DNA of 64,000 nucleotides from a virus. Its lineage: Duplodnaviria; Heunggongvirae; Uroviricota; Caudoviricetes. The notes under the pieces are model-generated. The model worked only from the letters and a program-made list of their open reading frames with translations, made no database searches and was not told the DNA's origin. The position numbers were made by a program, and so were the translations under genes. This document shows positions 16,218-61,821 of this stretch, piece after piece. The stretch's first letter is position 1, and each line of letters starts with the position of its first letter. The stretch is from IMG/VR virus record IMGVR_UViG_3300021255_000031. The stretch is one strand, 5' to 3'.

Positions 16218-16248
16218 GATTTTGTTCTCCTTTGCTTTTGATAGTCCT

Positions 16249-16330: not shown

Positions 16331-16356
16331 AAAAGTTTAGGACGTTTTCACGTCCT
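16331..16356 (-). terminator. terminator AGGACG-UGAAAA-CGUCCU + AAACUUUUUU
   Basis: after 16348..16617. Confidence 0.6.
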
Positions 16357-16617: not shown

Positions 16618-16648
16618 AGCTGTTTATCTCCTCTCTTTTGATGGTATC

Positions 16649-16677
16649 ATTATATCACTATCTATATAAATAGTCAA
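16649..16677 (-). promoter_or_regulatory. promoter for 16348..16617 (TGATATAAT 16649-16654; TTGACT 16672-16677)
   Basis: 17-nt spacer. Confidence 0.65.
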
Positions 16678-16772
16678 GTTAATTGTTGGTTAAGTTAGAT
16701 ATTAAGTATTCAAAAAATCAACAATGAGGTTTATTCCTTATTGTGCGCTTGCGCTTGCGACTTTTACCTATT

Positions 16773-16861
16773 ATTATATACCCATTAAGTTGTAAAGTCA
16801 ATAGAATTTACAAAGATTTAACATTGCTTCTGCGTTAGAAAATTGGATGTGTAACATCCAA
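16773..16861 (-). promoter_or_regulatory. orphan promoter (TATAAT 16773-16778; TTGACT 16796-16801) + palindrome variant TTGGATGTGTAACATCCAA 16843-16861
   Basis: about 80-nt transcribed spacer with AU-rich hairpin + U-run (16726-16760) before next promoter. Confidence 0.55.
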
Positions 16862-18661: not shown

Positions 18662-18690
18662 TTGACTTTTTTCAATTTATATGTTATAAT
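18662..18690 (+). promoter_or_regulatory. sigma70 consensus promoter for packaging/structural operon (TTGACT 18662-18667; N17; TGTTATAAT 18682-18690)
   Basis: sits about 55 nt upstream of GGAGG SD of 18747 gene. Confidence 0.65.
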
Positions 18691-18746
18691 ATAATCGGTC
18701 AGAGTATGAAAATACTCACTCCAAAATCACTATGGAGGTTTCCAAA

Positions 18747-20036
18747 ATGAAAAAACCCTATACACTTGACTACTCAATTGAACGAGATACTGACCGCCTC
18801 AAGGCAGTCGAAGATATATTAGATAAACTAGATAAAAATCCCTCCCCCGCCGAATTAGAACAAATGGGTTCTTATATACTATATGGCAAAGACGAAAATG
18901 GCAAAAACGCCTACCAACGCGGAGAAATGATAAGAGATGCCCGCTATAATTCTTATAAAACCAAAGAAGATAAAAATGTATCACTTGATGCAATTTTAGA
19001 AAATCCACTATCTGACCAGCAGCAATTTCGTGAGATGGGCACAAGAGACCCATACCTACTTCCACGTCGTGTCCCGCGCCGCCCCAAATACGATAAAAAA
19101 ACAAATACAATAATTGATGACGGGGACGGTGATATTCCAGGAATGCAAGAATTATGGGAGTGCATTGACCGTAACGAGCACTGGATAGCCGTTCTTGAAG
19201 GCAAGATACCGGCGCAGCCCGAAGACACACTATTTGATAATCCCTATCGTCTATATAAACTAAAACATTCACTAATTGATTTGCGGCGGCACCAATATTA
19301 TTTATTAGATGCCTACAAACCTTGTATCCACTTCCTCGCGGCCGACCACCCCAAACGCCAATACATAGATTGGAACAGCGACTCCTTCTACTGGATTTCG
19401 CGTGAAGAGTGGGAAAGGCGCGTTAATAGCACTTTTTTCCCTGTTTCAAAAAATATTGAAGATTATGAAGTGAGAAATGAAGGAAAAGAAGTAAAGTGGG
19501 TGGTGCGCCAGCACACCTTCAATTGGGAAGACCCAAATCATATTTATGCATTAATTTGTAACTATCAAAGTTTATATAATCTTTTATGGGACAAATTAGG
19601 CACGGACGGTCATACTTTACTTATGGATTTTCAACGCTACCGCCAATTAACAAATTTTTCTGAATTACGCAACTTTATCTTACAAATGAAATTGGAACAA
19701 TATTCACAAGCTGAGATTAAATTTGCCGTTCAAAAAAAATATGGATTAAAATTTGGCATTAGTCATTTATATACTGTTATAAGTAAAGAAATCCCAGAGG
19801 CCATCGCGCAAACGGTAATTAAAGATAGAATGTTGAGGCAGACCCCCAAAACCCAATGTCAAAAATGCCGTGATTGCGGCCGTTGGCTTCCAAAAAATAA
19901 TTACTTTTATGTCACTAATAATAATCGCGCAAGTGGATTTTCCGCTCGTTGTAAAGAATGCGAGCGACAGGCGCGTATTGCAAAAGGAGAACAAGGGCAA
20001 TATGACAGAAGAAAAAAAGAAACGCACGTGCATTAG
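18747..20036 (+). CDS. hypothetical protein with C-terminal CxxC...CxxC zinc ribbon
   Basis: start MKKPYT after GGAGG SD; consensus promoter 18662-18690 upstream. Confidence 0.6.
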   Translation: MKKPYTLDYSIERDTDRLKAVEDILDKLDKNPSPAELEQMGSYILYGKDENGKNAYQRGEMIRDARYNSYKTKEDKNVSLDAILENPLSDQQQFREMGTRDPYLLPRRVPRRPKYDKKTNTIIDDGDGDIPGMQELWECIDRNEHWIAVLEGKIPAQPEDTLFDNPYRLYKLKHSLIDLRRHQYYLLDAYKPCIHFLAADHPKRQYIDWNSDSFYWISREEWERRVNSTFFPVSKNIEDYEVRNEGKEVKWVVRQHTFNWEDPNHIYALICNYQSLYNLLWDKLGTDGHTLLMDFQRYRQLTNFSELRNFILQMKLEQYSQAEIKFAVQKKYGLKFGISHLYTVISKEIPEAIAQTVIKDRMLRQTPKTQCQKCRDCGRWLPKNNYFYVTNNNRASGFSARCKECERQARIAKGEQGQYDRRKKETHVH

Positions 20037-40000: not shown

Positions 40001-43000
40001 CCACTTGTCAAAATATTTCTACTACTATGCGGCATTTGGCGGAAGTTCAAAAAGAAATTAACAACCTACAAAAACAAAATAATGATGCTGATAAAAAACG
40101 CGTACAATCTCTAAAAGACCAGTATAAGCTTTTATCTCAGATTGCTTATAAGCAATCTATGGATTCTAATTCATTTAAATTTTTAGATAGGTCATTACCA
40201 ACTGGTTATGAGAGCCCTATCAATTATTTACAATCTGCTGTTAAATCATTTGATATTATTAATCAAGCTAGTGAAGATGGCCACATTGCATTAACAGATT
40301 TCTATAACATTGTTATGGAAATGAGTAATGTTGCCGCGATTACGGGTCAGACTATTACTGTATTCGGGCAAACTATTACAGGCGATTTAGTACAAACTTC
40401 TGAACTCATTCAAAAAGGTTTTAAAGTATGGTCTGATATTGATGGCACAGCTTCTATTGGAGCAGAGGCAGCCGCGAGTATCGGATTAAACTTTGAAGCT
40501 GGTGTTGAAGAAGGACAGGGTAGTATTGAATCTGGTATTAAGGCATTTGCAAAACAGCAAATTGAAATGCTTGATGCAATGATTAATGCTTTGGAAGGAG
40601 TCGCGGCTTTAGAAGCGCTAGAGACTGGAACTGGAGATAAGAGTTTAGGCTTAGGAGAGGTTCTTGGTAATTTTTATGAGACTGATGAAAAAGGAAATTC
40701 TACAGGTAACATATCCCAGAAGGCTCAAGACTGGATAAATTCTTTTAAAACAGTTATTGATGGTAATGAAAAGTTAAAGGCATTCGTAGATAAAATTAAA
40801 GTTAGTGATGAAGATCTTATTACATATTTGCAGGATGAAAAAGTTACTGCCGAGCAAAAGAAAAATGTCCTTTCACGCTTATATGAACTAATGAAGAGCA
40901 ACGACTGGGGTGACGACCTTTCACAAGTTGCAGATAAGTGGGCAGAACAAGGATTTAATTTTGATGCTAAATCTGGATTCTTGAAATTCTCGGAGCCAAT
41001 AGAAACGGATGTTCCTCTTACATTAAAAGTTGTACTTGAGGGTATTGATGCCGAAGGATTGAAAGGTTTTAGTGATTTGTTAAAGAAATTACTACAAGTT
41101 AATCCAAATGGTGATATTGACCTTACTGGTACAATGGGTAAGAATCTTGCTTATACACTAAAACTCGCTCGTACTAAAAATGGAGATAAAGTCACTCTTA
41201 CAATTGATGGTAAGGAGCCATATGAAAGTGCGCTTTTTGATGCAACAAATAGTGGTGCATTAACAGCGCAAGTTACAGATGTTATCAATCGAGCAGCGAA
41301 AGATTTAAAGATTTTTAATATTGCTGATACTAATTTTACAGTTACTGGAGTAGGCACAAATACTTATATAGCAACTGAAGATGGCGATACGCTAGAGTAT
41401 CATAAAACTATCAATGGCAGCAATCCGCCTATTATTACTATTTCTGGCACTTCTATAAAAGGTGGATATATTTCAATTGCGTCTGCAATAGAAACTTATA
41501 AAAAAGAAAAACAAAAACAAGCTGCAATTAATCAAGACACATTAAATACTCAAACTAACGAAACCTTTACTGGCATCGAATCTGGTTCTGGTTTAGGATA
41601 TGAGATTCAATTTAAGGATAACGGCGCCACCGCTGCAATTAAAATTGGCGGTAAAGAGATTGCTACCTGGTCTGATAATGATGGTACTGGCTTAACTTTA
41701 AATAGTGCGATAGAACGTGCATTTGCTTTATATCAACAGCAATATGGCAGTAATTCTGTAGAGATGCCATCTTTACCCTCTGGTAATAAAGAAATTATTC
41801 CAGAAGATAAAGGAATTACGCTTGGATATAAAATTACTCCCAATGAGAATGGCGGCTATAGCGTAACTTTTGGCGAGGGTAGCAAGTGGGGAACCCCTGC
41901 CGCATGGAATGGCACAAAAGAAGGATTACAAAGTGTTCTGACGCAAGCGGCTATGCATTATTATACAGAGCACGGTTCCGGTTCCATTCCTGAAGGATTT
42001 GACCCGTTAGGACAATCTATAAGTGGAACAGTGGTATCTGCGGAAGATGATGGTAATACTTTACAATATTATTTAAGTTTTGATAAGAGTATTGATAGCG
42101 GACGTATTACTATCGGAAGCGGTTCTACATATGTTTCTATGGGATGGTCTGGAAATCATGCCGAAGGAATACAAACAGCTTTACGTATTTATCATAATAG
42201 AATAGCATCAGCTGCGAAAGAGCCTTCTTTTGATAGTGATAATATTGAAATATATGATAATGATAATGGTATAGTTTATTCTTTCGCGGCTAATGAAAAA
42301 GACGGTCAATTTTATCTGCCGGGTGGAACGGCTCCTGTTAGTCAAGCAGAATTTATAGCTGGAATTCAAACTTGGGTTGCTACAAATCGTGGTACAATAG
42401 TCGAAGAGCTAAAGGATACAGGTTTAACTCAGGTTGAAGTGAGTAGCGGACCAGAAGGAACCAAGGTTAATGCCGTTGGTGACTATTGGGCTGCGGATGG
42501 CACCGGTATAGGATATTATTTAAGTCTTAAGACTAAAGAAAATGGCAATGTTAATGGTTATTCGACCGGGACAATTAAAAATGCAGTTGATGCTACTAAG
42601 AACTGGTTAAAATCTCTTGAAGAAAAGTATGGTAGCGGTGAAGCTATCGCGGACGCACTTGGTGCAGGTAAATTAGTAATTAATCCAGAAACTAATCAAG
42701 TTACTATGGAAGAAATTCCAATAGCCAATGGTTATAAGCTAGATTATAATTTACAGATTACCACCACAGGTGATGCGACAGCAACTCAAGAGGCTTTAGA
42801 AGAAAAAATAGCTACGGTAAAACGATTACAGGCAGCATATAAAGATTTAGAAGCTTTAAAAGTTGAACAAAATGCTACTGGAATAGAGGGCAGTGCCATT
42901 TTTCCTTCTAAATATTTTTCCTTGGATTTGGGTCTTATCGTTAAAATCACTGATAGTGGAGTTAAGGTAAGCGGTAATGTAAGCGGTTTAGCATCTACTT

Positions 43001-46000
43001 ATGATAGTATCGATGACTTTATGAATGCCCTTATCGATTTTTACGAGCAGAAATTGGGGCAGACGGTCGATATTAATAATACTACTCAAGTTGAGAATGA
43101 TTTATCCACTGGTGGGAATGAAACGACTAATGCAACTCCTTACACGCATGGTGGAACTGCAACTAATGTTGTTTATCCTGATGACCAAAGTGATGCCTTA
43201 TATAATCAATATCCTGATAAAAATGTTGAATCTGAGTTTGAGGAAGAAATTTTAGATGAAGTAACTCAAATTGCTGAAGAAAAAACTAATCCGACTACCG
43301 AAGGCACACAAGCACCTGATACTGAAAATGCTCTTACCGATGAAGAGATTATAGCGGATTTAAATACTAAAGTGGGTGATGCTTTAAAACTTTGGGCAGA
43401 CAAGAGCGAAGAAGCTGATTTAGCTAAATCAGAGGGAAGCGATGATGCTGACCATCTTGAAGAAGAAGCACAGGCATTACACCAATTAGTATTAACTCTT
43501 ATGGATTCTCAAGACATTTTAAATGCCGGACAGTCACAAGAGCAGCAACAAACGCAAGATTTATCTCAAGACCAAATAAAATATTTATATGATAATCAAG
43601 TTTCTAACGATAGTATAGATACAATTATTGGACAATTGGAAGCTAGCAAAAGTGATGATGAAACAACAAATGCTCAAATACAACAAACTATAGACTGGTT
43701 GAGTGCGTTAAAAGAAGGCAATTCTAATCAGCTAGAAAAAATGAATCAAATCGCTGCGAAGACACGCTTGCCATATACCCCGACTGAATTAAAAGCAGGC
43801 TTAGACGGAATTAGTATTCATGGTGATTTGTTTGCAGGCGGCTGGCAGTTAGTTCGCCCTGATGGTGCAGGTGGCTATACACATGAGCCTGGTGAGGGCT
43901 CAGCAAAAGGTAATGCTCAAGCCAAAGGTACTCTCATGGGTGAGCTTGGCCCAGAGCTTTATGTTACTGGCGGGCATTATTATATTGCTGGTCAAAATGG
44001 TGCAGAGTTTGTTGATTTGCCAGATGATGCAATTGTATTCAATCATTTGCAGACTCAACGTCTAATGTCTAATGGCTCTACCGGTCGCGGACGTGCAATA
44101 ACTAGTGAGAAGAAAGCTACATCTTATGCAACCGGTAATGTGGCTATGGCTTCTGCTTCTGAAACCGTTGCTAAATTGCGTGAGCTACGAGCTCTTTGGG
44201 AATCTCTATTAAATCAAGATTTCAAGAGTCTTACTCAAGCCGCGGGTGGTGGCGGTGGCGGCGGTTCTGAAGAAGCTAAAAAGTTTTTGTATGACCTAGA
44301 CCGCTGGTATAATTTACTACGACAGATTGAAAAGGTTGAAGAACAGATTAATTACCAGCAAGCATTACGGCAAAATATGCAATCTGGCTATAAGTATGTG
44401 CGTAGCCTAGAATATGAACTTTCATTATTGGAAAAAGAAGCATCCAATTATGAGATGCTGGCTAAATTGCAAGAAAGTTATTATCAAGCTCGTAAGGCTG
44501 ACCAAGAACGGTCTATTTATAGTTATTTCTTCAATTATGATGATGAAGGCTTGATGCAGTATCGAGACGAAGGCTTCCATCTTGTCGCAGATTTAAATCG
44601 TACTGATGAAACCGGACAGGCTGTTTATACTTCTGAACAACAAATAGCTGCTATTACAAATGCATTAAAGGCTGCTGGCTATGATGCAGATTTAATCTCT
44701 AATACGCTTTACTATGATGAAGCTGGAGAAAAGCTAACAGATTCGGCAGATATAATTCAAAATTTCTATGACAAATTTGATGGCTGGATAGAAGAGATGG
44801 ATGCAGAGTACGATAGCTTTAATGAATATCGTACCAAGACTCAAGAAGCTCTTACAAAACAAAATGAAATTCTTGAAGAATATAGAGAATTGCAAATCGG
44901 TTTAGAGAAACAATTACTTGAAGCCATTGAAAATAGAGAACAAAAAATTATTGATACATTACAAGATGAAATGGATGCATTGAAAGATGCTTCTGACAAG
45001 TATCTTACTGGATTGACGGATGCCTTAAATAAAGAGCAACAAATGTATCAACAAAATGAAAAAGATACTGAGTTATTGCGTTTGCAACGTCAATTGGCTA
45101 TTCTACAAAGGTCTGGCGGTTCTGCTAGTGAAATTAAATCTTTACAAGACCAGATAAATAGTAGGATGCAAGATAGATATTTTGAAGCTCAGCAAACCGA
45201 AATTGATGCAATAAAAGAAGCTTCTGATAAGCAATTAGAAATGATGCAAAATCAAATCGATATACTTACTGAAACTTTAGAGTATCAAAAAGAAAACGGA
45301 TTGCTTTGGGCAGAAGTATCTGAAAAGATGAATACTTGGAAGCCTGAAGAACTTGCTAGTTTTGTGCAAGAAAATAGTCCAGAGTTCGCGGCCGCAAGCC
45401 TAGAAGAACAGACTAAAACAATGCAAGAATCGATTAAAGAGTTTGAAAAATGGTATGAATATATTCACAATTATCGTGCCTTTAATCAATTCTACGATCA
45501 AATTGATACCGACACTTTGAAAAATGAGTATGGTATTAATACTGATGATGAAACTATGCTAAAGCGCGCCCGAGCGACCGCAAAGACCGCATATCAAAAA
45601 GAGTATCAACGGCAAATCGATGAGGAAGGAGCAGATAGCGACACCGCACATAGATTGGCAGAAGAAGCTGCATTAAGGGCGTTAAGAGAAGATTACAGTT
45701 TGCATCCTGCTATGGGGCCCGGACGCGGTGGAATTGATACTAGTGGTGCGATTGGTAGTGGTAGTGGAACTGGTGGATTAAGTACATTTAAAGAAGTCCA
45801 AGCCAAATGGAATGAAACAAAATATAAGTTTAATAACGCAGTAAGTAATTATAGTAAGACGCCATTAGGTTTCCGGAATTGGTATGATGCTAATAATAAA
45901 TGGGGTATTACTTGGGATAATTTGCAAGAAGCGAGACATAAATCAGAGTTTGGCGCGAATGTTTATGCAACAGCATTTGGAGAGTGGCAAGCATATACAA

Positions 46001-46476
46001 ACAATTTTGAAAAAAATAGAAAGTCTCAGCAGGATAATATCACCGCTCTATACAATGAATTAAAACGCTTATTAAAGGGTTATCCTGAAGCATTGAAGGG
46101 CTATACATTGCCTGCGTTGCCGACATTCGATATTGGCGGAATCGTTGATAAAACTGGCCCGGCTTTGGTTCATGCGAAAGAGGGCGTTATAACTTCAGAA
46201 CAAGTTGATATGCTTCGTAAGCTTACTATTACTTCTGGTAAGCAGTCTCTTGCTTATCAAATGGCAGAACTTAATGAAGTATATAGTAATCTAGTAGCGC
46301 CTCTTACACATCTTGCAGACAATTCAACCAATGGTTTGGTAATTGAAAATGCAACAGTTAAGATGAATGTACAATCCATCGCAAATGATTATGATGCTCG
46401 TCGTGCTGGAGAACAGGCTCTTGATGAAATGATGCGTATAGCAAGAAAAACCGGAGCACAAAGTATAAGGAGGTAA
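34048..46476 (+). CDS. tail tape measure protein, 4142 aa
   Basis: N-terminal TP901-type TMP core (AIVTDMTQDDLWSQMSTY...VMTLTGETLKMARIAGLDYAKATDFMTNALRSF...AISVSELANAMSKTASSAY); long coiled coils; internal repeats; GGGGGGG at 44241-44265. Confidence 0.75.
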   Translation: MAEGIVIDVSARVTGYEQSLAQLKASFDHLNPGASISKSITRALQIAESKVKSLGNNLTPKITSNSQLDRFTEKINSTSDAIQHVASLLGQISSDDLDLSSFSGEFDELTQKIRELEALLNKNITEQFREKITAAISGIKIDDNATPAAIFQQLEEASKKAAKAVVAAEREMAEAEKQLATRQRRLTELQSNAANNPTALNNQVHKIADDYVEAMSSLREQMTNGLNTLLGPDSADASKLLESFFGGLNPEDGADVANRIYQLRQSITTAMGKSAVKPTEIYQALFGKNLSPQAMSEYLRAHILPKNLDDVKAQLMATLQSISTHLTSTQIGQVSGLISSNDIDGALQTTLDLITKAYETIQAKILKKRQEVAEALNKRDNAQQEVNNATAQSQQSVDNEQIAREQLAQVMQQNQALQEQNDLLKQELARQVEDKTVNIKNRAADTKEEAENLKLASEEAGQYNQQLDKIDNRRQLVNHIEGIAQRWFSIYAAVRMTGNAIRSVVSTLEELDKTITNIAIVTDMTQDDLWSQMSTYTAMAKEYAVSISGVYEVSQLFYQQGLQTRDVMTLTGETLKMARIAGLDYAKATDFMTNALRSFKMENEEAGRVTDVYSSLAASAAISVSELANAMSKTASSAYAVGSSIEATSAMITVMVEATRESAENIGSAMKSIISRYGEMTSDPLKVVDSEGEEMSLNRVDKALQTVGITLQDANGQFRNFDEVIMELAEKWNTIDKNTQRYIATIMAGNRQQSRFLALVSSYDRLRELTATAMESEGAATSQFEKSLDGIEAKTQQLQTSLQNLYTSAGLQDLYSFILTIGSNVLDFYNDIAAAFGSGFKGLLAALVTFSAQFYNAARIVMRVVDLVKTHFIGANKQATASSAVESKNRANTELYTAEELNAKIIEVWRKAEEEKTKITTEEAERRAKILLNAEKNNSQQKGSGLKNWLKKNGSMIGSTIAAGSSIVGGMLTDSKWSAGVSGAGGLIGAVIQGASGDIAGAIMTAISSIGPLVSLITQWATITDELAEAQEKYNKSLEEAAKKRTEATKINNEAEALKKLSERLEEAKERQYDSAEAKQEYLSVMKEIAEQYPSLVAYYDSENNAIVENTKALDTYIKKRKQEAAIAEREAIIAEAGADSRYGVTITPAKQVYEGKTSGRDVSRLHNQENDIIQGKFSTVGAAMNAAISEYLYYNTGFLADVETSNLLGFDYNNDTNKTLFKEKAKNATKEKTDLNINKAVQVALDVLVSRLEAAQKAGTSLEEVYTKWEKEWLATIDGYNRENSLFYEIFQYAQQYITHADTFKASREDLVHRAAVSFVKSLDLEGYTDLQIQHLVGQFESSFKETNPDVLNISTSQEDFQKRLNTFWGQQIESSGNYTLNALEYYGTIDKKTIAQIDKVFNNLAKYSRNSLEALIDSIGITGPAAKDLLKEWDTENGLAVENAKKAYSNLLGSNQELSQEQADFIDSLAPTYLSTYIEQLRAFSSNGSGGTPTSLNISPIQKIWEKAQGNDEALQVLQKSDLTTITGIYDAAKEMEKLGNSDLATSITKLSEYIQINLNTELQTYVDTLQGSFSDLEAALKNASSGMDVDTMLAMADRLGKSISDFSFKDGKYYFNDINAIYDSYSKASDALEKQLSEIQLVEDTDNYEELSAEANELKNRIKELRTYTDDYLKKTFLLQTGQIDKFLEELNVGAEVKQEIAHGDYTHIPPEYISAVTSAAGKTYNEIYDILIGQINGSSKQTTIKATEVNLDLLKSLGLAGNGVVAGDELLINWANATADQINSLRQIILEDGDIGDDERNNLLRSIYDSKFKNNRTEALLQVINSYTNFDRSVAEAFALSIGETVEGLEKKGIIALNQITGAYSMTFDVLQQQIEEAKANGASDTELAKLKDAISTLYSGIANNIVKALEGSLSSTDAQELSKSIEDIFGLKLDFSSTAKGLGLSNEIAAILYQRLMAIDGIAARLVFDALYDSLTKSEATCQNISTTMRHLAEVQKEINNLQKQNNDADKKRVQSLKDQYKLLSQIAYKQSMDSNSFKFLDRSLPTGYESPINYLQSAVKSFDIINQASEDGHIALTDFYNIVMEMSNVAAITGQTITVFGQTITGDLVQTSELIQKGFKVWSDIDGTASIGAEAAASIGLNFEAGVEEGQGSIESGIKAFAKQQIEMLDAMINALEGVAALEALETGTGDKSLGLGEVLGNFYETDEKGNSTGNISQKAQDWINSFKTVIDGNEKLKAFVDKIKVSDEDLITYLQDEKVTAEQKKNVLSRLYELMKSNDWGDDLSQVADKWAEQGFNFDAKSGFLKFSEPIETDVPLTLKVVLEGIDAEGLKGFSDLLKKLLQVNPNGDIDLTGTMGKNLAYTLKLARTKNGDKVTLTIDGKEPYESALFDATNSGALTAQVTDVINRAAKDLKIFNIADTNFTVTGVGTNTYIATEDGDTLEYHKTINGSNPPIITISGTSIKGGYISIASAIETYKKEKQKQAAINQDTLNTQTNETFTGIESGSGLGYEIQFKDNGATAAIKIGGKEIATWSDNDGTGLTLNSAIERAFALYQQQYGSNSVEMPSLPSGNKEIIPEDKGITLGYKITPNENGGYSVTFGEGSKWGTPAAWNGTKEGLQSVLTQAAMHYYTEHGSGSIPEGFDPLGQSISGTVVSAEDDGNTLQYYLSFDKSIDSGRITIGSGSTYVSMGWSGNHAEGIQTALRIYHNRIASAAKEPSFDSDNIEIYDNDNGIVYSFAANEKDGQFYLPGGTAPVSQAEFIAGIQTWVATNRGTIVEELKDTGLTQVEVSSGPEGTKVNAVGDYWAADGTGIGYYLSLKTKENGNVNGYSTGTIKNAVDATKNWLKSLEEKYGSGEAIADALGAGKLVINPETNQVTMEEIPIANGYKLDYNLQITTTGDATATQEALEEKIATVKRLQAAYKDLEALKVEQNATGIEGSAIFPSKYFSLDLGLIVKITDSGVKVSGNVSGLASTYDSIDDFMNALIDFYEQKLGQTVDINNTTQVENDLSTGGNETTNATPYTHGGTATNVVYPDDQSDALYNQYPDKNVESEFEEEILDEVTQIAEEKTNPTTEGTQAPDTENALTDEEIIADLNTKVGDALKLWADKSEEADLAKSEGSDDADHLEEEAQALHQLVLTLMDSQDILNAGQSQEQQQTQDLSQDQIKYLYDNQVSNDSIDTIIGQLEASKSDDETTNAQIQQTIDWLSALKEGNSNQLEKMNQIAAKTRLPYTPTELKAGLDGISIHGDLFAGGWQLVRPDGAGGYTHEPGEGSAKGNAQAKGTLMGELGPELYVTGGHYYIAGQNGAEFVDLPDDAIVFNHLQTQRLMSNGSTGRGRAITSEKKATSYATGNVAMASASETVAKLRELRALWESLLNQDFKSLTQAAGGGGGGGSEEAKKFLYDLDRWYNLLRQIEKVEEQINYQQALRQNMQSGYKYVRSLEYELSLLEKEASNYEMLAKLQESYYQARKADQERSIYSYFFNYDDEGLMQYRDEGFHLVADLNRTDETGQAVYTSEQQIAAITNALKAAGYDADLISNTLYYDEAGEKLTDSADIIQNFYDKFDGWIEEMDAEYDSFNEYRTKTQEALTKQNEILEEYRELQIGLEKQLLEAIENREQKIIDTLQDEMDALKDASDKYLTGLTDALNKEQQMYQQNEKDTELLRLQRQLAILQRSGGSASEIKSLQDQINSRMQDRYFEAQQTEIDAIKEASDKQLEMMQNQIDILTETLEYQKENGLLWAEVSEKMNTWKPEELASFVQENSPEFAAASLEEQTKTMQESIKEFEKWYEYIHNYRAFNQFYDQIDTDTLKNEYGINTDDETMLKRARATAKTAYQKEYQRQIDEEGADSDTAHRLAEEAALRALREDYSLHPAMGPGRGGIDTSGAIGSGSGTGGLSTFKEVQAKWNETKYKFNNAVSNYSKTPLGFRNWYDANNKWGITWDNLQEARHKSEFGANVYATAFGEWQAYTNNFEKNRKSQQDNITALYNELKRLLKGYPEALKGYTLPALPTFDIGGIVDKTGPALVHAKEGVITSEQVDMLRKLTITSGKQSLAYQMAELNEVYSNLVAPLTHLADNSTNGLVIENATVKMNVQSIANDYDARRAGEQALDEMMRIARKTGAQSIRR
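41340..42670 (+). repeat. at least 5 tandem about 55-65-aa Gly/Tyr-rich repeat modules inside tape measure protein (approximate bounds)
   Basis: recurring G..Y.h.....G.....G......A......YG pattern, e.g. GIGYYLSLKTKENGNVNGYSTGTIKNAVDATKNWLKSLEEKYGSG / QYYLSFDKSIDSGRITIGSGSTYVSMGWSGNHAEGIQTALRIYHNRI. Confidence 0.5.
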
Positions 46477-54671: not shown

Positions 54672-55408
54672 TATATATCTTCGCCCCATTTAATGTGGCT
54701 ATTCTTCAATTTACTAGTAAAATATTTTCCAATACAGATGGCATCCGCTTCGTCCTGGGTACAAGTTTGTTCATACCATTGTTTAACTTTTTCTTGTGCG
54801 ATTTTTTTCTTGTTTTCGCGCCCCTTTTCGGTGTTAATATTACAATATTTGCGCCATTCTGTAGAAAATACTAAATCGTGGTCTATACATGCTTCAAATA
54901 AAGTATCTAAAATAACACCTTGTAATTGTGCCAATGTTTTAAATGTTACAACTTGTGCCTGATTTCCATTATAAGATTGTAATTGAATATTTTCTATTCC
55001 TACAAAATCGGGGTCCCAAGTACGAATGGCTGTTTGTAACCACTTTTTAAATTCATTAATACGTGCTTCTGTGTCACCATCGGCTGTTTTAAAAGTGCCA
55101 TAACTAACTAAATCGCCATCATCAAATACAGCATAGCCGCTGACATTCGTCGCAGCATCAAGTGCTAATATTCTCTGTGTGCCAATCTTTTTGGTTGGCA
55201 CAATATTTTTTTTAATTTTTTTTGCATTCCCACTAAAGCACATATCACAAGTAGGATGCTTTCGCCATTCACCATATGTTCTAGTTTGTAAATGCCCGTT
55301 AGGACATTTCATTTCTAACTCTGTGTTTAAATTTTTATAACTGTCGCTAATAAGGAACCACCCTTCCGAGCTTAGATGATTAGCAACAGTATGAATATTA
55401 ATTGGCAT
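54671..55408 (-). CDS. RuvC-like Holliday junction resolvase with N-terminal zinc finger
   Basis: ILALDAATNVSGYAVFDDGDL (RuvC motif I) and DEADAICIG acidic catalytic cluster; CPNGH..CDMC. Confidence 0.6.
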   Translation of the reverse strand: MPINIHTVANHLSSEGWFLISDSYKNLNTELEMKCPNGHLQTRTYGEWRKHPTCDMCFSGNAKKIKKNIVPTKKIGTQRILALDAATNVSGYAVFDDGDLVSYGTFKTADGDTEARINEFKKWLQTAIRTWDPDFVGIENIQLQSYNGNQAQVVTFKTLAQLQGVILDTLFEACIDHDLVFSTEWRKYCNINTEKGRENKKKIAQEKVKQWYEQTCTQDEADAICIGKYFTSKLKNSHIKWGEDI

Positions 55409-56211
55409 TAAACACCAGTACTACCAAAGCCACCAGCACCGCGTTCAGTTTCGTCGAGCTTTTCTACTACTACAGCCTTAAACTGATGAATAGGTTCTAC
55501 CCAACATTGCGCAATACGGTCGCCAGCTTTAATTTCATAGTCAGAATCAGAAATGTTATCATATAGGATGCCAATTTCACCGCGATAATCAGCATCAATA
55601 ACTCCTATAGAATTAGATAACCGCAAGCCTGTTTTTGAACCAATACTTGAACGTGGTGCTATTTTCATTACCCATCCTTTAGGCAAGGCAATGCGTAAGC
55701 CGGTACGAACCTTATTACTAATGGAGTGCGCGGGAAGAATCATATCTTCTAGAGCATAAATATCGGCACAGGCGTCTGTATCATGGGCGTAAGTTGGCGC
55801 TTTTGCTCCTTCTTCTAGGGTGACAGGAAGTTCGATATCATAAAAAGAATATCTATTTTTAGCTTCTTCAAACATTTCTACAAAGATATCAAAAATAAAA
55901 TTTAATAATTCTGCTTTCGCCGCAGAAGGATGTAGTTCATCAATCAGTTCTGTAATACTTAAATTAAAATCATTAATACCCTGTTGAATTTCTGAAGCTG
56001 TTTTATTCTCTTTTTTGTAACTGGTAAGTATTTGTTGAATAGTTTGTTCGCGGACTTCTGGAGTAAAAGCTCCACTAAACATACCCTTTATCATATTTAA
56101 TGAAGCACTATTCAATGCATCATCAGAAATTGACATGATAGATTCTATCATTTTAGTAAGCTCATCTAATTCAGAGCGATTACTATTAAAAATATTTATC
56201 TTGTTTTCCAT
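55408..56211 (-). CDS. dut: dUTP diphosphatase with about 125-aa N-terminal extension
   Basis: C-terminal PRSSIGSKTGLRLSNSIGVIDADYRGEIGI...GDRIAQC...TERGAGGFGSTG = dUTPase motifs 2-5. Confidence 0.8.
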   Translation of the reverse strand: MENKINIFNSNRSELDELTKMIESIMSISDDALNSASLNMIKGMFSGAFTPEVREQTIQQILTSYKKENKTASEIQQGINDFNLSITELIDELHPSAAKAELLNFIFDIFVEMFEEAKNRYSFYDIELPVTLEEGAKAPTYAHDTDACADIYALEDMILPAHSISNKVRTGLRIALPKGWVMKIAPRSSIGSKTGLRLSNSIGVIDADYRGEIGILYDNISDSDYEIKAGDRIAQCWVEPIHQFKAVVVEKLDETERGAGGFGSTGV

Positions 56212-56749: not shown

Positions 56750-57685
56750 TTACACCAACTCTATATTATTCAAATTTTGTCCAATAGGATAATTGTCTGA
56801 AGTATAACGCCAAATAAAATTATATGCTGTTTTCCATTTTCCTCTACATACTTCAGCAATGTGCCCATGCGTCTTTCCTAAAAATCTTCCTGCTTCTGTG
56901 GCAGATGAAAATGTCTGTAGATATTTTCCATTTAAATCATATTGATTTACTTGTTTAGAACATCTTTTTAAAACTGCTTTAGATACATGTTCTAATCTTT
57001 TCTGAATATTTTCTTTTCTATTACTAGCTACTTGTTTCATATCAGTTGTATCTTCAGAAAATTTCCATAAAAAATTATAAGAAGTAGTGTGATCATTACA
57101 AGCGCATAAAATATTATTTCGTCCAGTAATAAAATTTTGAATTTTTAATTTACGGGATGCATCTCCTGCAGAATAATATTCATTGAGATAATTTCCATTT
57201 AGATCATATTGTTGAACACTTTTTGGCTGCTGTAATTTGTCTTTTTCTTCTTGTGTCATATATCCTAAATTATACTGATGTAAAACATTTTTAATGGTAA
57301 TTAAAGACGCATTGAAATAGTCACTTAATTCTTCTATAGTATATCCATTATTAAATAAAGTAATTGCTAATTGATGATTAACTTTTGGACTACCATCTCC
57401 GCCTGGAGTTTGATTATATCCTTGTGGGCCAAAAGCTTTATAATAACTAATCCAATAAATTTCTTTTTCAATTAAATCATCTGGTAGACATTCTTCTACG
57501 ACAGAAAAATTAAAATTTTCTATACCATATTTTCGTATAGCTCTATACAAAGGATATTCATATGACGAAGCATCTTTGTAATAAGCAAGTCGTTTATGAT
57601 CTCCAAATCTTTTGTTAATATTTAATGCTTTTCCGATATAAATTTTATGATTGATATTATTTTCAATTTTATAAATACCAGTCAT
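56750..57685 (-). CDS. GIY-YIG homing endonuclease with repeated C-terminal DNA-binding modules
   Basis: GIYKIENNINHKIYIGKALNINKRFGDH (GIY..YIG..R); two repeats QYDLNG.YL...S...A.R.L......N/I.....K.....F.W. Confidence 0.75.
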   Translation of the reverse strand: MTGIYKIENNINHKIYIGKALNINKRFGDHKRLAYYKDASSYEYPLYRAIRKYGIENFNFSVVEECLPDDLIEKEIYWISYYKAFGPQGYNQTPGGDGSPKVNHQLAITLFNNGYTIEELSDYFNASLITIKNVLHQYNLGYMTQEEKDKLQQPKSVQQYDLNGNYLNEYYSAGDASRKLKIQNFITGRNNILCACNDHTTSYNFLWKFSEDTTDMKQVASNRKENIQKRLEHVSKAVLKRCSKQVNQYDLNGKYLQTFSSATEAGRFLGKTHGHIAEVCRGKWKTAYNFIWRYTSDNYPIGQNLNNIELV

Positions 57686-57687: not shown

Positions 57688-58674
57688 TTAACCACCCTGT
57701 TTTTTATTATACCCAAATTCTTGGGATTTAAAGAAATCAATATAATATTTTTCCAATTCACTTAATTTTTCTTTTTCACAATAGGTTATGACTTCTATAG
57801 TCCAATTCCAAATTCCTTCTTTTAGAATTGCGTTATGAATTACTTGCGAAGCTATGGCTTCTATGCCAACGCTTGACTTGAAGTGGTCTTGAAGCCGCTT
57901 CTTTACATTAGTGCTTTTACCAATATAACATTTACCAGTTTCAATATTAGTGATTTTATAAATACCTGGTTCATCTTTAATACCAATACGTTTAATTGTT
58001 TCATCCATATAAGGCTTAACATATTCTGCCCAAACAAGCTTACTTATAATGTCTGGATGATTTACTTTTTGACTAACTACATTTAATAAGTAATCAATAT
58101 CATTATGATATTCTTCTGGAACTTGTATTGTATAATATAATCTTTCTTGTTGTGCTTTTTCATATTGATGAAGTGGCGCGAGCAAATTATTAAATCGTTC
58201 TTGTTGAAACTCTGTATCTTTTACAATTTGCTTAGAACGCGTATTATATTCTTCAACCACTGATTGATATGCCTGTTCTAGTAACGAAGTTTGCCTCTGA
58301 TATTTATCAGTCTCAATTTCTAAATTTTTCTGAAGAAGTTTCTTCGAGGAAACTTCTTGCTGTATAATTTCATTTTCAAGTTGTTCTAATCGCCGTGCTT
58401 TTGCTTTATCATAAAATTCATCAACTTCTTGAGCTTTTTGTGCGAGAATTTTGTTATCTTCATCAACAATCGATTTAAATCTTTGTTGTTCTTTTTCAAC
58501 TTGTTTTTGACAAAAGTTTAAATCTTCTTGTAAAGTAGATTTATTATGCTTTAAAAGTTGAACATCCTGTTCTAACTTATTTCTTTCTCTTATATCTAAA
58601 ACTTGCTTTTGGCGTAGTTTTATTATACATATTGCCGCAATCGCAAGTCCTATCACTCCGACTATCCAGCCCAC
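57688..58674 (-). CDS. membrane-anchored coiled-coil protein with C-terminal GIY-YIG/T5orf172-like nuclease domain
   Basis: N-terminal TM MGWIVGVIGLAIAAICIIKL; about 170 aa heptad-rich; C-terminal GIYKITNIETGKCYIGKSTNVKKRLQDH. Confidence 0.65.
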   Translation of the reverse strand: MGWIVGVIGLAIAAICIIKLRQKQVLDIRERNKLEQDVQLLKHNKSTLQEDLNFCQKQVEKEQQRFKSIVDEDNKILAQKAQEVDEFYDKAKARRLEQLENEIIQQEVSSKKLLQKNLEIETDKYQRQTSLLEQAYQSVVEEYNTRSKQIVKDTEFQQERFNNLLAPLHQYEKAQQERLYYTIQVPEEYHNDIDYLLNVVSQKVNHPDIISKLVWAEYVKPYMDETIKRIGIKDEPGIYKITNIETGKCYIGKSTNVKKRLQDHFKSSVGIEAIASQVIHNAILKEGIWNWTIEVITYCEKEKLSELEKYYIDFFKSQEFGYNKKQGG

Positions 58675-58750
58675 TTACATCACCTTTCACTCCTTTCTTT
58701 GATAATTAATTATATCATAAAATTCATGAAAAGTCAAATAATAAAATAGG

Positions 58751-58774
58751 TGGGGCAATATTAAAATTGCCCCA
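58751..58774 (-). terminator. hairpin UGGGGCAAU-UUUAAU-AUUGCCCCA containing stop of small membrane ORF
   Basis: 9-bp stem followed by U-rich tract on minus strand. Confidence 0.45.
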
Positions 58775-58928
58775 ATAAATCAATAAAGTTTTTTACAGTA
58801 AGAACTACCCAATAGGCGACGATAAAAGCCCATGTAAGTGCTTGATCGCGGTTGCCATATTTATATTGTCTATAACTAACAATTCCCGCTATCAGCATTA
58901 GTAGTATTACAATAATTGTTATTACCAT
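58761..58928 (-). CDS. small membrane protein (55 aa)
   Basis: AAAGGAG SD 7 nt before ATG; two hydrophobic segments; overlaps 3-prime end of nrdG ORF in another frame; stop inside hairpin 58751-58774. Confidence 0.45.
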   Translation of the reverse strand: MVITIIVILLMLIAGIVSYRQYKYGNRDQALTWAFIVAYWVVLTVKNFIDLLGQF

Positions 58929-59586: not shown

Positions 59587-61821
59587 TTAATGAATATGCT
59601 TTACTCTGTCTTCAGTTTCTTTTTGTTTGCCCCAGTTGAACGCATCTTTATACGAACCTGTAAGATAACCTGTGACACGACGTAAGCGAGAAATATGCGT
59701 GCTGCCACACTTAGGACACTTTTCACCAATTTCGTCCTGATAGCCACAATCTTGGCACATATCTAAGGGGATGTTTAATGCGAAATATGGTACATCGTGA
59801 TCCATAGCATAATTTACAATTGTTTCAAGAGCGTCAATATTATTTTTAACGCCACTTGGCACTTCGACATAAGTGATACAGCCGGCATTGGAATATCCCG
59901 TAAGCTGACTTTCAATATCTATCTTATCAAAGATTGAAATGTCTTTCCATACTGGAACATGAATACTATTTGTAAAATATTCACGGTCGGACACATTAGG
60001 AATCTTACCATACTTTTGCTGAAATTTCTTCATCGCTGTGTGACAAAGATTCTCGGCAGGAGTATAATATACGCCAAAGTTTAGATGCTCTTCTTGCTTA
60101 AATTGCGCACATCTGTCTTTAAATAATTGTTCAATACGCTTTGCTAGTTCCATTCCACGAGGGTCAGTATGGTCGCAGCCGATAAGGATTTGAAGTGTTT
60201 CTGCAAGCCCTAATTGACCGATAACGAGAGTACCGTGTTTTAGTGCGGAGCGAATACCCTCTTCTGGTTTATAACCAAGCATTGTACCATTTTCATACAT
60301 AAATTTAGCAGATGCTGGTGATTGAGAGCAAATCCACTCAAAGCGTTCAAGGAGCATATCTTTGGCTTCGTGAATTTTTTGGTCTAAAAGCGACATAAAC
60401 GCTTCTACATAATCATTTGCATCTGGATAAGCGGCATCCACTGCTTCTTTTGCCATCATAGCGAGTGTTGGCATGATAATTGTTACAGGACAAATATTTC
60501 CGCGCCCATCCTTTGTCTGAGGATTAACACCAGGCTCTGCATTGATGTCGGCGCCATTTACTGTTCTACAACCCATGGTACTAAAATAAGTTTTAGGGTC
60601 GTTCTTATCATAACCCGCATTACCGCTCCAATCAACATTGGCATAGTTAGGATAAATTCTGCGTGCAGTAGATTCAAGCGCGAGTCTAAACAGATCATAG
60701 TTTGGATCGCCTGGCTTCCTATTAACACCACTCATACATTGAAAGATACCACATGGGAAGATAGGGGTCTTATGATATTTACCAACACCTTTAATAGAGC
60801 CTTCAAGTAATGCCTTTGTTACAATACGACCTTCTGGCAGGGTGCAAGTTCCATAGTTAATGGATGTGAAAGGTAGCTGATTCCCGCTTCTAGATTGAAG
60901 TGTATTGAGGTTATGATACATGCCCTCAACTGCCTGTTGAAGCTCTCGCTCGGTCATATCCATAGCATACTTATATGATTTAGGAAAGGTAGTATAAAAA
61001 TAATCTTCTATTGAGGTATTATTATCATACATTCCTTCATATTTAGACATATTTATATCTTCATAAAAATATTTTATTCCATCACACCAATGTTTATAGA
61101 AGCTCTTCCTCACATAAGGCACCATAGTCCAATCTAAATGGGTGGCTGAAACGCCACCAAATTGCATAAGCGATTGAAGCTGAAAAATAACTGCTACGAG
61201 TTGAAATGCAGTATTAATACTATTGGCTGGGCGTACATCAGTCTGTCGAGTATTGAAACCTTCTGCCAATAGTTTATCAAAAGGCACTGATAAGCAATTG
61301 TGGTCGCCAAGAGCATAGTGGTCTAAATCATGAATGTAAATCATATTGCCCAAATGATTTTCTTTAGCCATAGGTGAAAGCATAAAGTCAAGTGCGTATT
61401 GTTTAGTAAGAACGCCAGATGCTTCACCTAAACGGCCACCAAATGAGTGTTCATCTACATTTGCATTTTGATTTACAACATTAGAAGCATTTAGTTTTTC
61501 GCTAATCGCACGAATAAACTGCGTTGAACAAGAACGCATAATTCCTCGTTTATATCTATATTTAATGTATGCTTTAGATATAAGAGGGTCATATTCAAAC
61601 AAATTATCTTCTACTAAATCCTGAATCTCTTCTACTGTAAGTGGACGGTCAATTTCAGGGTCATGGGCTATTTCTAATATAGTATCAGCAATAGTTTCGG
61701 CAAAATGAGGTGTCGGAGACATTGCTCCATAGACTTCTTTATTGGCTTTATCAATAGCATTTATTATTTTATTTTTATCAAAACTAACCAAATTGCCGTT
61801 TCTTTTTCTTATCTGAACCAT
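59587..61821 (-). CDS. nrdD: anaerobic ribonucleoside-triphosphate reductase
   Basis: N-terminal ATP-cone, C-terminal CxxC..CPKCG zinc site and glycyl-radical motif RVTGYL. Confidence 0.85.
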   Translation of the reverse strand: MVQIRKRNGNLVSFDKNKIINAIDKANKEVYGAMSPTPHFAETIADTILEIAHDPEIDRPLTVEEIQDLVEDNLFEYDPLISKAYIKYRYKRGIMRSCSTQFIRAISEKLNASNVVNQNANVDEHSFGGRLGEASGVLTKQYALDFMLSPMAKENHLGNMIYIHDLDHYALGDHNCLSVPFDKLLAEGFNTRQTDVRPANSINTAFQLVAVIFQLQSLMQFGGVSATHLDWTMVPYVRKSFYKHWCDGIKYFYEDINMSKYEGMYDNNTSIEDYFYTTFPKSYKYAMDMTERELQQAVEGMYHNLNTLQSRSGNQLPFTSINYGTCTLPEGRIVTKALLEGSIKGVGKYHKTPIFPCGIFQCMSGVNRKPGDPNYDLFRLALESTARRIYPNYANVDWSGNAGYDKNDPKTYFSTMGCRTVNGADINAEPGVNPQTKDGRGNICPVTIIMPTLAMMAKEAVDAAYPDANDYVEAFMSLLDQKIHEAKDMLLERFEWICSQSPASAKFMYENGTMLGYKPEEGIRSALKHGTLVIGQLGLAETLQILIGCDHTDPRGMELAKRIEQLFKDRCAQFKQEEHLNFGVYYTPAENLCHTAMKKFQQKYGKIPNVSDREYFTNSIHVPVWKDISIFDKIDIESQLTGYSNAGCITYVEVPSGVKNNIDALETIVNYAMDHDVPYFALNIPLDMCQDCGYQDEIGEKCPKCGSTHISRLRRVTGYLTGSYKDAFNWGKQKETEDRVKHIH

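Follow-up and report, generated by a model that had tools for sequence, protein, structure and literature searches.

A family of predicted membrane-anchored, stalked GIY-YIG nucleases in gut and rumen phages, with a layout resembling that of the SNIPE defense nuclease

The gene at positions 57688..58674 (minus strand) of the window, the whole 64,000-nucleotide stretch of phage DNA analyzed here, encodes a protein that we propose to be an immediate-early, bitopic inner-membrane protein, in which an I-TevI-type GIY-YIG nuclease would be held at the cytoplasmic end of a long helical stalk. On sequence grounds the product is not a homing endonuclease. The role that we favor, with a probability of roughly 0.4, would be that of an early nuclease whose action is confined in space and which most likely serves superinfection exclusion. 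The phage is large and apparently lytic, and its Bacillota host is uncultured.

The coding sequence is complete and has exactly the coordinates at which it was originally called: it opens with GTG, runs for 328 codons and ends with TAA. The GTG start is supported because homologues begin with M-x-W-I, and it is preceded by a Shine-Dalgarno region at 58680..58696 (minus strand), read directly from the sequence as AAAGGAG ... AAGGTGA, which contains a mini ATG-TAA directly 5' of the start codon. At E<=0.001 a protein search gave 1198 matches; nearly every one of the best 120 is full-length, with 301-349 aa and a query coverage of 92% or more, which excludes a chance reading frame. About 100 clusters (at 50% identity) of proteins from gut and rumen phages of Bacillota share the same length and layout, with the TM segment, the stalk, a middle module and the nuclease co-occurring across these divergent clusters; the architecture is also kept in the TAG-recoded Phage Phass-1, at 34% identity. 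The family's present annotations read 'group I intron endonuclease', 'GIY-YIG' or 'hypothetical', and in TAG-recoded phages its member appears broken into fragments. A nucleotide search of a phage collection with the 56-60 kb region gave no match, and the matches from a protein search of that collection were limited to the GIY-YIG domain, apart from Phass-1. The scan of species-representative genomes yielded only MAG contigs and one isolate match confined to the GIY-YIG domain, and no bacterial chromosomal or defense-island version was found in it.

Within the window's clade the order DnaE-nrdD-nrdG-gene-dUTPase-RuvC holds unchanged at identities as low as 44-47%, and the position of the gene is identical in the related contigs L002-L007, L015, L034 and L035. 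Linkage to nrdDG is present in this clade and in Phass-1 and absent in L010 and L022, where the neighbors are DNA ligase, gyrase A and RNase H; as a functional clue, the nrdDG linkage fails in these two relatives and was set aside. Two further contigs, L020 and L021, have the same neighboring genes and no full-length copy, indicating that the gene is accessory rather than essential. The ORF at 56750..57685, 2 nt downstream, is the conventional GIY-YIG homing endonuclease (HEG) that it had been taken for, and carries two NUMOD1 motifs besides its GIY-YIG domain. HEGs recur at this downstream site, and the neighboring HEG is present or absent depending on the relative. The large, syntenic and non-mobile nature of the membrane protein's own family had been missed in the sequence-only reading.

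A consensus sigma-70/sigmaA promoter with an extended -10 element lies upstream of the gene at 58709..58737 (minus strand), in the form TTGACT-17 nt-(TG)A-TATAAT. Its score of 11/12 is the joint best in the 54.5-62.2 kb region, shared with a plus-strand site at 60040-60068, and among the 11/12 sites of that region it alone carries the TG. It is the sole perfect TTGACN-N16-18-TATAAT from 18.7 to 64 kb; the other 31 perfect promoters in the window comprise 30 in the early region (392-16801, minus strand) and one preceding the sigma-like gene. An equivalent promoter occurs 47-62 nt 5' of the gene in L001, L002, L004, L005, L006 and L022, and in L007 its -35 element is visible; these seven relatives include 32-34% homologues. 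Since the 10-kb replication/nucleotide module has no second perfect promoter and 30 others crowd the early region, the gene's own consensus, host-type extended -10 promoter points to immediate-early expression. Further upstream, an intrinsic-terminator-like hairpin at 58751..58774 (minus strand; TGGGGCAAT-loop-ATTGCCCCA and then a T-rich tail), read directly from the sequence and given a 9-bp stem with five GC pairs by a terminator scan, ends the upstream nrdG/small-ORF transcription unit; together with the promoter it speaks for early expression. A small ORF with two TM segments at 58761..58928 was considered as a partner of the membrane nuclease and dropped, as it is not kept in relatives.

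The N-terminal TM helix that had been noticed from the sequence was borne out by hydropathy. Residues 2-20 (GWIVGVIGLAIAAICIIKL; 58615..58671, minus strand) have a mean Kyte-Doolittle value of 2.36, and every other segment reaches 1.6 at most. The window protein has no K/R ahead of this helix and KLRQKQ directly after it; among the full-length family representatives the TM begins at residue 1-7, is preceded by no K/R in nearly all cases (maximum 1) and is followed by 1-6 K/R (mostly 2-5) within 12 residues. This charge distribution predicts an N-out/C-in topology, and on that topology, derived from hydropathy and the positive-inside rule, the nuclease is predicted to face the cytoplasm. In a profile comparison, a weak resemblance to the TM and stalk of ATP synthase subunit b was also noted.

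The anchor is followed by a variable amphipathic α-helical stalk, probably a coiled coil, at aa 23-164 (58183..58608, minus strand). AlphaFold2 modeled aa 2-179 as a single unbroken helix with pLDDT >90 at aa 50-150, and aa 22-165 contain neither Pro nor Gly. The 3.5-residue hydrophobic periodicity of the stalk was matched by 14 of 2000 shuffles, and across 68 family members the median z was 3.3 at period 3.5 and 4.8 at period 3.6, with values near 0 at periods 3, 4 and 5. The stalk is probably a dimeric coiled coil of ~140 residues, roughly 20 nm long. The coiled coil claimed earlier is therefore present as a helical stalk; its length is ~140 and not 170 aa. Residues 165-235 form a separate, highly conserved helical module, which had not been separated out. 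Weak matches to ZorA, JetC, LmuB, DUF948, DivIC and apolipoprotein were discarded as coiled-coil noise.

The module at aa 165-235 (57970..58182, minus strand) is specific to the family, packs on the nuclease domain and consists of two to three helices with a net acidic charge; residues D192, I193, L196, K212, L213 and W215 show no or almost no variation. Scans against Pfam, PHROG, PADLOC and NCBIfam gave no family match for either the stalk or this module, which we infer to be a novel acidic helical adaptor. Close relatives share 32% pairwise identity in the stalk versus ~75% in the C-terminal half, and aa 160-270 correspond to a 93-100% nucleotide-identical tract held in common with a phage that is otherwise 66-77% identical. 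Judged from these identities, the family is one of two-speed evolution and module shuffling.

The GIY-YIG catalytic domain of I-TevI type, at aa 236-328 (57691..57969, minus strand), is complete, and the protein terminates exactly where the domain does (GYNKKQGG, then the stop). The earlier claim of a full motif is well founded: PF01541 matches the window protein with a Pfam E=1.5e-9, and the G237-I238-Y239 and Y250-I251-G252 motifs are present, with Y239, Y250 and G252 invariant among 68 homologues. The predicted fold is the three-stranded sheet with flanking helices that is typical of GIY-YIG domains. The equivalents of the catalytic residues R27, H31, E75 and N90 of I-TevI are R260, H264, E308 and N323, so both the Arg and the Glu whose loss would mark a dead domain are present. 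In alignment A3 none of the four varies; in alignment A4 the same holds for R260, H264 and N323, and E308 reaches a conservation of at least 90%. With its catalytic site intact, the domain is predicted to be an active DNA endonuclease. It passes the cut-off of the TIGR01453 'group I intron endonuclease' model, with a match that spans model positions 3-88 of 215, and the families that it matches best in PHROG and in PADLOC are those of HEases. The arrangement nevertheless differs from that of the I-TevI/Seg HEGs, in which the catalytic domain is N-terminal: here the domain order is inverted, the protein is membrane-anchored and it has neither the linker nor the C-terminal, sequence-tolerant DNA-binding domain (NUMOD, IENR1, HTH or zinc finger) of those enzymes, a profile scan having shown no NUMOD or HTH. 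Moreover, HEGs are mobile and sporadic, whereas the window gene is syntenic and non-mobile, occupying the same site in relatives and spread over ~100 clusters.

Since the protein has no recognizable DNA-binding domain, we infer that the anchor serves to confine a low-affinity nuclease. It would restrict cleavage to DNA arriving at the membrane, and would keep the enzyme away from bulk host DNA and from replicating phage DNA; the most likely substrate would be the DNA of a second phage during injection. Superinfection exclusion had been suggested from the sequence, and the predicted immediate-early promoter and cytoplasmic orientation, together with the strictly conserved anchor, add support to it; nothing specific supports the abortive-infection-like variant that had been offered beside it. 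In T4, the exclusion gene imm likewise sits among early nucleotide and replication genes. Several observations argue against exclusion. The ~140-residue stalk would put the nuclease up to ~20 nm off the membrane and not at the entry pore; for an arms-race protein, conservation of the C-terminal half is unusually high; and the DNA-metabolism neighborhoods in which the gene is always found (nrdDG and dUTPase, or ligase, gyrase and RNase H) suit a DNA-metabolic role equally well.

One such role, unlikely in our estimate, would be that of a host-takeover nuclease, which nicks or cuts the host chromosome early, causing host shut-off and supplying deoxynucleotides to the adjacent nrdDG/dUTPase pathway. 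The GIY-YIG nuclease EndoII (denA) of T4 exemplifies a takeover nuclease that attacks host DNA. EndoII, however, is a soluble tetramer without TM or stalk that acts on the host nucleoid. I-TevI is far more similar to the window protein than EndoII is, and the window protein shows neither the N-terminal extension nor the closest structural similarity by which EndoII was to be recognized.

It appears still less probable that the protein is a membrane DNA-processing factor for the phage's own genome, nicking or resolving replication, recombination or repair intermediates either as a catalytic counterpart of phi29 p16.7 or as an Slx1/UvrC-like structure-specific GIY-YIG nuclease. The gene's surroundings do always consist of replication and repair genes (DnaE and RuvC in the window; in L010 and L022, DNA ligase, gyrase A and RNase H), and conservation of the C-terminal module hints at a partner or substrate that is conserved too. 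The early phi29 protein p16.7 has the same plan, in which a TM at the N-terminus is followed by a coiled coil and a cytoplasmic C-terminal DNA-directed domain, although it binds DNA and does not cut it, and the likeness is one of layout with no sequence relationship expected. A DNA-processing role sits poorly with the contigs L020 and L021, which keep the flanking genes and have no full-length copy, with a predicted immediate-early host-type promoter unlike the remainder of the module, with a catalytic domain that is HEG-type and unaccompanied by a structure-specific or DNA-binding module, and with the RuvC-like resolvase already encoded close by.

Slightly more doubtful again is some other membrane-proximal target, such as host mobile DNA arriving through conjugation or competence, membrane-attached plasmids or prophages, or RNA; in the last case a TM, coiled coil and nuclease arranged as in RNase Y would act in host shut-off or counter-defense. 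Predicted early expression would agree with this, as would an architecture that is generic for membrane-tethered nucleic-acid enzymes, but no partner or defense-related neighbor is conserved in the relatives examined. We know of no established RNase activity for I-TevI-type GIY-YIG domains.

Finally, an ordinary or decaying HEG fused to an upstream membrane ORF, with an architecture that has no function of its own, is very improbable: the TIGR01453 and HEase matches and the true HEG 2 nt away, at a site where HEGs recur, would favor it, but that match is confined to the first part of the model, the catalytic domain is C-terminal without any NUMOD, HTH or zinc-finger part, the four parts co-occur in ~100 clusters with catalytic residues that are invariant (at least 90% for E308), and the gene's position is fixed, whereas the neighboring HEG is present in some relatives and absent from others.

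Superinfection exclusion remains the role that we prefer, and if it is correct this would be, as far as our literature search found, the first nuclease-based superinfection-exclusion system. Even if the protein attacked host DNA or acted in replication, a strictly conserved anchor on a phage nuclease calls for explanation, and recognition of the family would improve the annotation of abundant gut and rumen phages.

Two other systems invite comparison. UzuA of Uzume (PADLOC PDLC03973) is ~280 aa long and, like the window family, has a C-terminal GIY-YIG domain. Its profile matches 32 of the 68 family members with E down to 1e-9; these matches are confined to model positions ~164/184-277, the GIY-YIG part, and are not full-length, and no homology to the N-terminal part of UzuA was detected in family members. 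Concerning membrane GIY-YIG proteins of phages, our literature search found nothing but the work on SNIPE. SNIPE is PD-lambda-1 of E. coli ECOR26, built of DUF4041 and T5orf172 (Saxton et al., Nature 2026, PMC13190303). This nuclease sits in the membrane with N-out/C-in topology, cuts the DNA of phages while it is being injected and interacts with the tape measure protein; without its TM it is toxic and nucleoid-bound (PMC13190303). Two-speed evolution and module shuffling have been reported for SNIPE, and the DNA-binding face of its DUF4041 is basic and conserved. The Vassallo supplement names RCP76574.1 on QOXL01000020 for SNIPE/DUF4041.

The sequence-only reading had likened the window protein to T5orf172/DUF4041-type proteins, an analogy that was well chosen for the membrane-tethered GIY-YIG layout and does not extend to family membership. 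The HMM searches that it proposed for these two domains were negative on the window protein: DUF4041 (PF13250) gave no match with the full protein at E<=0.1 or with aa 161-328 at E<=10, and T5orf172 gave none either, including with aa 161-328 at E<=10. Nor does DUF4041 appear among the 25 Pfam families with the most matches to the 68 relatives (E<=1); five of these relatives match T5orf172 (best E 1e-3) and 67 match PF01541. The PADLOC PD-Lambda-1 model did not match the window protein at E<=1 and matched eight of the 68 relatives weakly (best E 1.5e-5), presumably through the nuclease domain. In these Pfam and PADLOC profile searches, homology with SNIPE did not go further than membership of the GIY-YIG superfamily. 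Since DUF4041 is lacking and the nuclease is of HEG/I-TevI type, the resemblance is, at the level of sequence, one of layout and not of family membership.

The differences extend further. SNIPE has ~500 aa against 328 in the window protein, its adaptor is a basic globular domain instead of an acidic two- to three-helix module, its nuclease is T5orf172/MUG113 instead of PF01541/TIGR01453 (I-TevI type), and its locus is one of bacterial defense, whereas ours is a predicted immediate-early gene of a phage. Because the adaptor is net acidic in contrast to the basic face of DUF4041, the DNA or tape-measure recognition of SNIPE is not transferable by analogy to the window protein. What the two have in common is (i) a single-pass N-terminal anchor with N-out/C-in topology, for the window protein by hydropathy and the positive-inside rule only, (ii) an elongated helical region, a small adaptor and a C-terminal nuclease of the GIY-YIG superfamily, and (iii) a variable N-terminal part with a conserved nuclease that is confined to the membrane. 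The phage protein may hence apply the spatial self/non-self principle of SNIPE with an HEG-type catalytic domain and an acidic adaptor. We suggest, tentatively and at somewhat less than even odds, that phages independently assembled a SNIPE-like weapon from a domesticated HEG catalytic domain, a new adaptor and a fast-evolving stalk anchored in the membrane, a weapon that would be expressed from an immediate-early promoter and would cut the DNA of rival phages, or other incoming DNA, at entry. If so, HEG catalytic domains can be domesticated by swapping a DNA-binding tether for a membrane tether, and aa 160-328 would represent a compact module for studying the control of an I-TevI-type domain in the absence of a DNA-binding domain. 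Spatial self/non-self discrimination by a tethered nuclease would then exist on both the phage and the bacterial side and be widespread in gut Bacillota phages, and the family would be a convergent, phage-encoded counterpart of SNIPE.

Reading of the sequence confirmed an ORF at 57688–58674 on the minus strand, which opens with GTG and encodes a 328-aa protein; the start codon was backed by an alignment in which the homologues open with M-x-W-I. The anchor, residues 2–20 (GWIVGVIGLAIAAICIIKL; mean Kyte-Doolittle value 2.36), is the sole strongly hydrophobic stretch of the protein. AlphaFold2 produced a single unbroken helix spanning residues 2–179, with pLDDT above 90 through the middle, and residues 22–165 of this stalk lack Pro and Gly and are abundant in Gln, Glu, Lys and Leu. 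The stalk showed a hydrophobic periodicity of 3.5–3.6 residues, above that of shuffled sequences (the local power was reached in 14 of 2000 shuffles), and across 68 family members the median z was 3.3–4.8 at periods of 3.5–3.6 and about 0 at periods of 3, 4 and 5. Since this heptad-like signal beats the shuffles and recurs family-wide, the stalk can reasonably be called a coiled coil, with a presumptive oligomeric state. The sequence-only reading had run the coil up to the nuclease; the helical stalk is real, but a middle module at residues 165–235 had been wrongly merged into it. In the homologue alignment this module is sharply conserved and distinct from generic coiled coil, and its conserved residues include P167, L168, Y171, Y181, Q184, P186, D192, I193, L196, H206-P207-D208, K212, L213, W215, E217 and Y218, among others. 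It is net acidic throughout the family (median charge −3). A model of residues 162–328 built from a 48-sequence alignment (pLDDT 93.3, pTM 0.85) placed the module and the nuclease in one compact unit, the helical part of which had no structural relative in the PDB.

The nuclease itself, a GIY-YIG domain that is complete (Pfam E = 1.5e-9), occupies residues 236–328. Where I-TevI has Y6, Y17, R27, H31, E75 and N90, the domain has Y239, Y250, R260, H264, E308 and N323, and all six are invariant or almost invariant across 68 homologues sharing only 23–48% identity with the protein. Thus, the earlier claim of a complete motif holds and the active site does not look dead; motifs, catalytic residues and fold each place the protein in the GIY-YIG superfamily. 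The domain shares 38% identity with the catalytic part of the neighbouring homing endonuclease gene (HEG) and is a domesticated HEG-type domain joined to a novel adaptor. Homing endonuclease identity was rejected although model TIGR01453 was passed (69.9 bits against a cut-off of 56, with only positions 3–88 of 215 covered), because the domain order is wrong, a DNA-binding domain is lacking, the gene is non-mobile and the protein is membrane-anchored.

Among 5.8 billion proteins searched, 1198 matched, and almost all of the best 120 were full-length (301–349 aa), on contigs of up to 188 kb. When a profile of the middle module was run against 1.84 billion cluster representatives, 100 clusters were recovered; two of these (P0143 and P0214) were rejected as repeat artefacts and, fragments aside, the rest were proteins of 280–390 aa with the module in the same relative place. 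In the full-length representatives, the hydrophobic helix begins at residue 1–7, Lys or Arg precedes it in almost none, and 1–6 (mostly 2–5) such residues lie in the next 12 positions; a search for a second hydrophobic segment found none, and anchor and nuclease are 166–269 (mostly 170–230) residues apart. By the positive-inside rule the anchor is predicted to be N-out/C-in, which would put the nuclease on the cytoplasmic side. The N-terminal third also has weak profile similarity to ATP synthase subunit b, which is likewise N-out/C-in. In a scan of one genome per prokaryotic species, full-length copies were confined to MAG contigs in Bacillota bins of gut and rumen origin, several of them phage-sized at 110–130 kb, with no cultured isolate among their sources. 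The family is widespread in gut and rumen Bacillota phages as phage-encoded, putatively immediate-early, membrane-tethered GIY-YIG nucleases.

The phage is large and siphovirus-like, with a portal gene and a phage sigma-like factor; Phage Phass-1 and phages of approximately 130–140 kb from Enterococcus, Lactococcus and Brevibacillus are distantly related to it. Its structural module holds a single 4142-aa ORF (34048–46476, plus strand), probably a tape measure and presumably a giant one, or else a tail protein, whose product is a candidate interaction partner of the nuclease if the analogy developed below holds. A 98% identical copy of the nuclease is carried by a 171.6-kb contig (L035). Within the clade the gene order is fixed, running DnaE, a 359-aa ORF, a 72-aa ORF, nrdD, nrdG, small ORFs and the studied gene, then a variable stretch, a 111-aa ORF, a 78-aa ORF, dUTPase and a RuvC-like gene, and it is kept down to 44–47% identity of the studied protein. 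At its N-terminus the dUTPase (55408–56211, minus strand) carries about 130 additional residues that match no family and are kept in the 267–274-aa proteins of relatives. In other phage lineages the family is always surrounded by genes of DNA metabolism: in L022 it follows RNase H, a glycosyltransferase and an ATP-dependent ligase, in L010 it follows gyrase A and an NAD-dependent ligase, and in Phass-1 it lies upstream of nrdD/nrdG. The Phass-1 homologue (OQ749652.1, 4488–5468) appears in GenBank as a pair of short "hypothetical" CDSs, WIC39637 and WIC39636; when its eight in-frame TAG codons were translated as sense (code 15), the product was 326 aa long with the same order of TM helix, stalk, module and GIY-YIG domain, and the split is an annotation artefact of stop-codon recoding.

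The adjacent free-standing ORF (56750–57685, minus strand; GIY-YIG plus two NUMOD1 domains) starts 2 nt beyond the stop of the studied gene. Three related contigs (L002, L007 and L034) lack it at this junction and L035 has it (10990–11925); in L004, where the studied protein is only 49% identical, the site is taken by a HEG of 62% identity (2836–3042). The adjacent ORF is a true mobile HEG, and the junction appears to be a site of repeated homing. GIY-YIG and LAGLIDADG-like ORFs break up the gene for the DnaE-type polymerase and nrdD in L035 (1–5571, with the polymerase in three pieces), L002 (1–3618) and L020 (1077–4293); these interruptions, possibly introns, inteins or HEG insertions, point to a heavy traffic of selfish elements in the module. 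The studied gene is a conserved accessory rather than universal, because L020 (which keeps nrdD/nrdG/dUTPase) and L021 (which keeps DnaE/dUTPase/RuvC) gave only HEG-like GIY-YIG matches.

Among close relatives, identity is 32% in the stalk, 44% in the anchor and 74–76% in the middle module and nuclease, the latter being more conserved than the flanking dUTPase or 359-aa ORF. Compared with L034 (10455–10810), the codons for residues ~160–270 (57865–58195) are 93–100% identical in nucleotides, with all third positions identical over residues 226–270; the 5′ half of the gene is about 50–60% identical and neighbouring genes 66–77%. With this sharp mosaic, the segment is a recent recombination tract, and the C-terminal module and stalk are exchanged independently of each other.

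The 86-bp spacer upstream of the gene contains, on the minus strand, a terminator-like hairpin (58774–58751) followed by a promoter, TTGACT-17 nt-TGATATAAT (58737–58709), which has the joint top score (11/12) in 54.5–62.2 kb and alone among the 11/12 sites has a TG. A small ORF of 55 aa (58761–58928, minus strand), whose product has two hydrophobic segments, overlaps nrdG at the 3′ end of that gene and terminates within the hairpin; it is not kept in relatives, where other small ORFs occur, one FeThRed_B-like. Perfect TTGACN-N16–18-TATAAT sites number 32 in the window. Thirty lie on the minus strand at 392–16801, about one per small ORF and mostly with a TG-extended −10; one (18662–18690, plus strand) precedes the sigma-factor-like gene (18732–20036, phrog_5767); and that of the studied gene is the only one between 18.7 and 64 kb. 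The dense cluster is most simply an early region read by host RNA polymerase, and the promoter before the sigma-like gene suggests a cascade from host polymerase to phage sigma. Equivalent extended −10 promoters were found 47–62 nt upstream of the start in Phass-1 (L001), L002, L004, L005, L006 and L022, and the promoter is also recognisable in L007, hence in all seven loci examined, including homologues at only 32–34% identity. We infer that unmodified host RNA polymerase probably transcribes the gene as soon as infection has begun, which would set it apart from its replication and nucleotide-module neighbours.

On its own, the catalytic domain of I-TevI is a poor DNA binder and must be tethered to reach its substrate. 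No recognisable DNA-binding domain was found in our protein; the membrane may be the tether, so that only DNA within reach of the inner membrane face would be cut, and a coiled-coil dimer would pair two single-site domains to give a double-strand break. By the time the protein appears, the resident genome would already have entered the cell, and DNA arriving later would be cut at entry. Our best reading, tentative at a probability of roughly 40%, is a superinfection-exclusion nuclease, the phage equivalent of the use made of SNIPE (PD-lambda-1), a bacterial membrane nuclease that cuts phage DNA at injection. Immediate-early timing of expression, an anchor that is strictly conserved, the accessory distribution and a modular stalk that evolves fast all agree with it. 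Counting against it are the acidic adaptor, whereas the DUF4041 domain of SNIPE has a basic DNA-binding face; a stalk that, fully extended, would hold the nuclease up to ~20 nm from the pore; and a C-terminal half unusually conserved for an arms-race protein. Degradation of host DNA, as by T4 EndoII, would suit the nucleotide-metabolism neighbourhood and early timing, but is unlikely given the anchor, which in SNIPE is known to hold the nuclease away from the chromosome. A nuclease for replication, recombination or repair at a membrane site, with a p16.7-like plan plus catalysis, agrees with the DNA-metabolism context in every lineage; the absence of the gene from related contigs, its distinct promoter class and the RuvC-like resolvase nearby make this rather improbable. 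Other membrane-proximal substrates (conjugative or competence DNA, or RNA) are given slightly less weight still, and accidental fusion of a decaying HEG is excluded in practice by the family-wide architecture.

Apart from the SNIPE work, literature searches on GIY-YIG phage proteins with a membrane or transmembrane part brought up only unrelated papers and no description of this family, and members in databases are named nothing beyond "hypothetical protein"; judged from sequence, this is apparently a phage-encoded, membrane-tethered GIY-YIG nuclease family not previously described in the literature searched. Matches to Uzume UzuA were confined to the nuclease domain. SNIPE family membership was rejected in profile-versus-sequence searches: PF13250 (DUF4041) had no match on the protein (E ≤ 0.1) or its C-terminal half (E ≤ 10) and fell outside the top Pfam families for the 68 relatives, T5orf172 matched only five of the 68 (best E 1e-3), and the PADLOC PD-Lambda-1 model gave no match on the protein at E ≤ 1 and weak matches in eight of the 68. 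The sequence-only reading is supported in part: it was right about the architecture and the SNIPE-type analogy, but membership of the DUF4041/T5orf172 family fails in these searches. A 242-aa early-region protein (7722–8450, minus strand) has a C-terminal T5orf172/MUG113 domain (residues 135–214, E = 3.5e-6) and no hydrophobic anchor; the phage thus also encodes a soluble nuclease-like protein of the T5orf172 branch used by SNIPE. In SNIPE, an N-out/C-in anchor is combined with an elongated helix, DUF4041 and, at the C-terminus, a nuclease of the GIY-YIG superfamily. SNIPE cuts lambda DNA as this is injected, turns toxic and nucleoid-bound without its anchor, and has a hypervariable N-terminal region with a conserved nuclease (PMC13190303). 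It is the closest functional precedent: the two proteins are alike in layout, whereas ours is built from a HEG-type nuclease and a novel adaptor.
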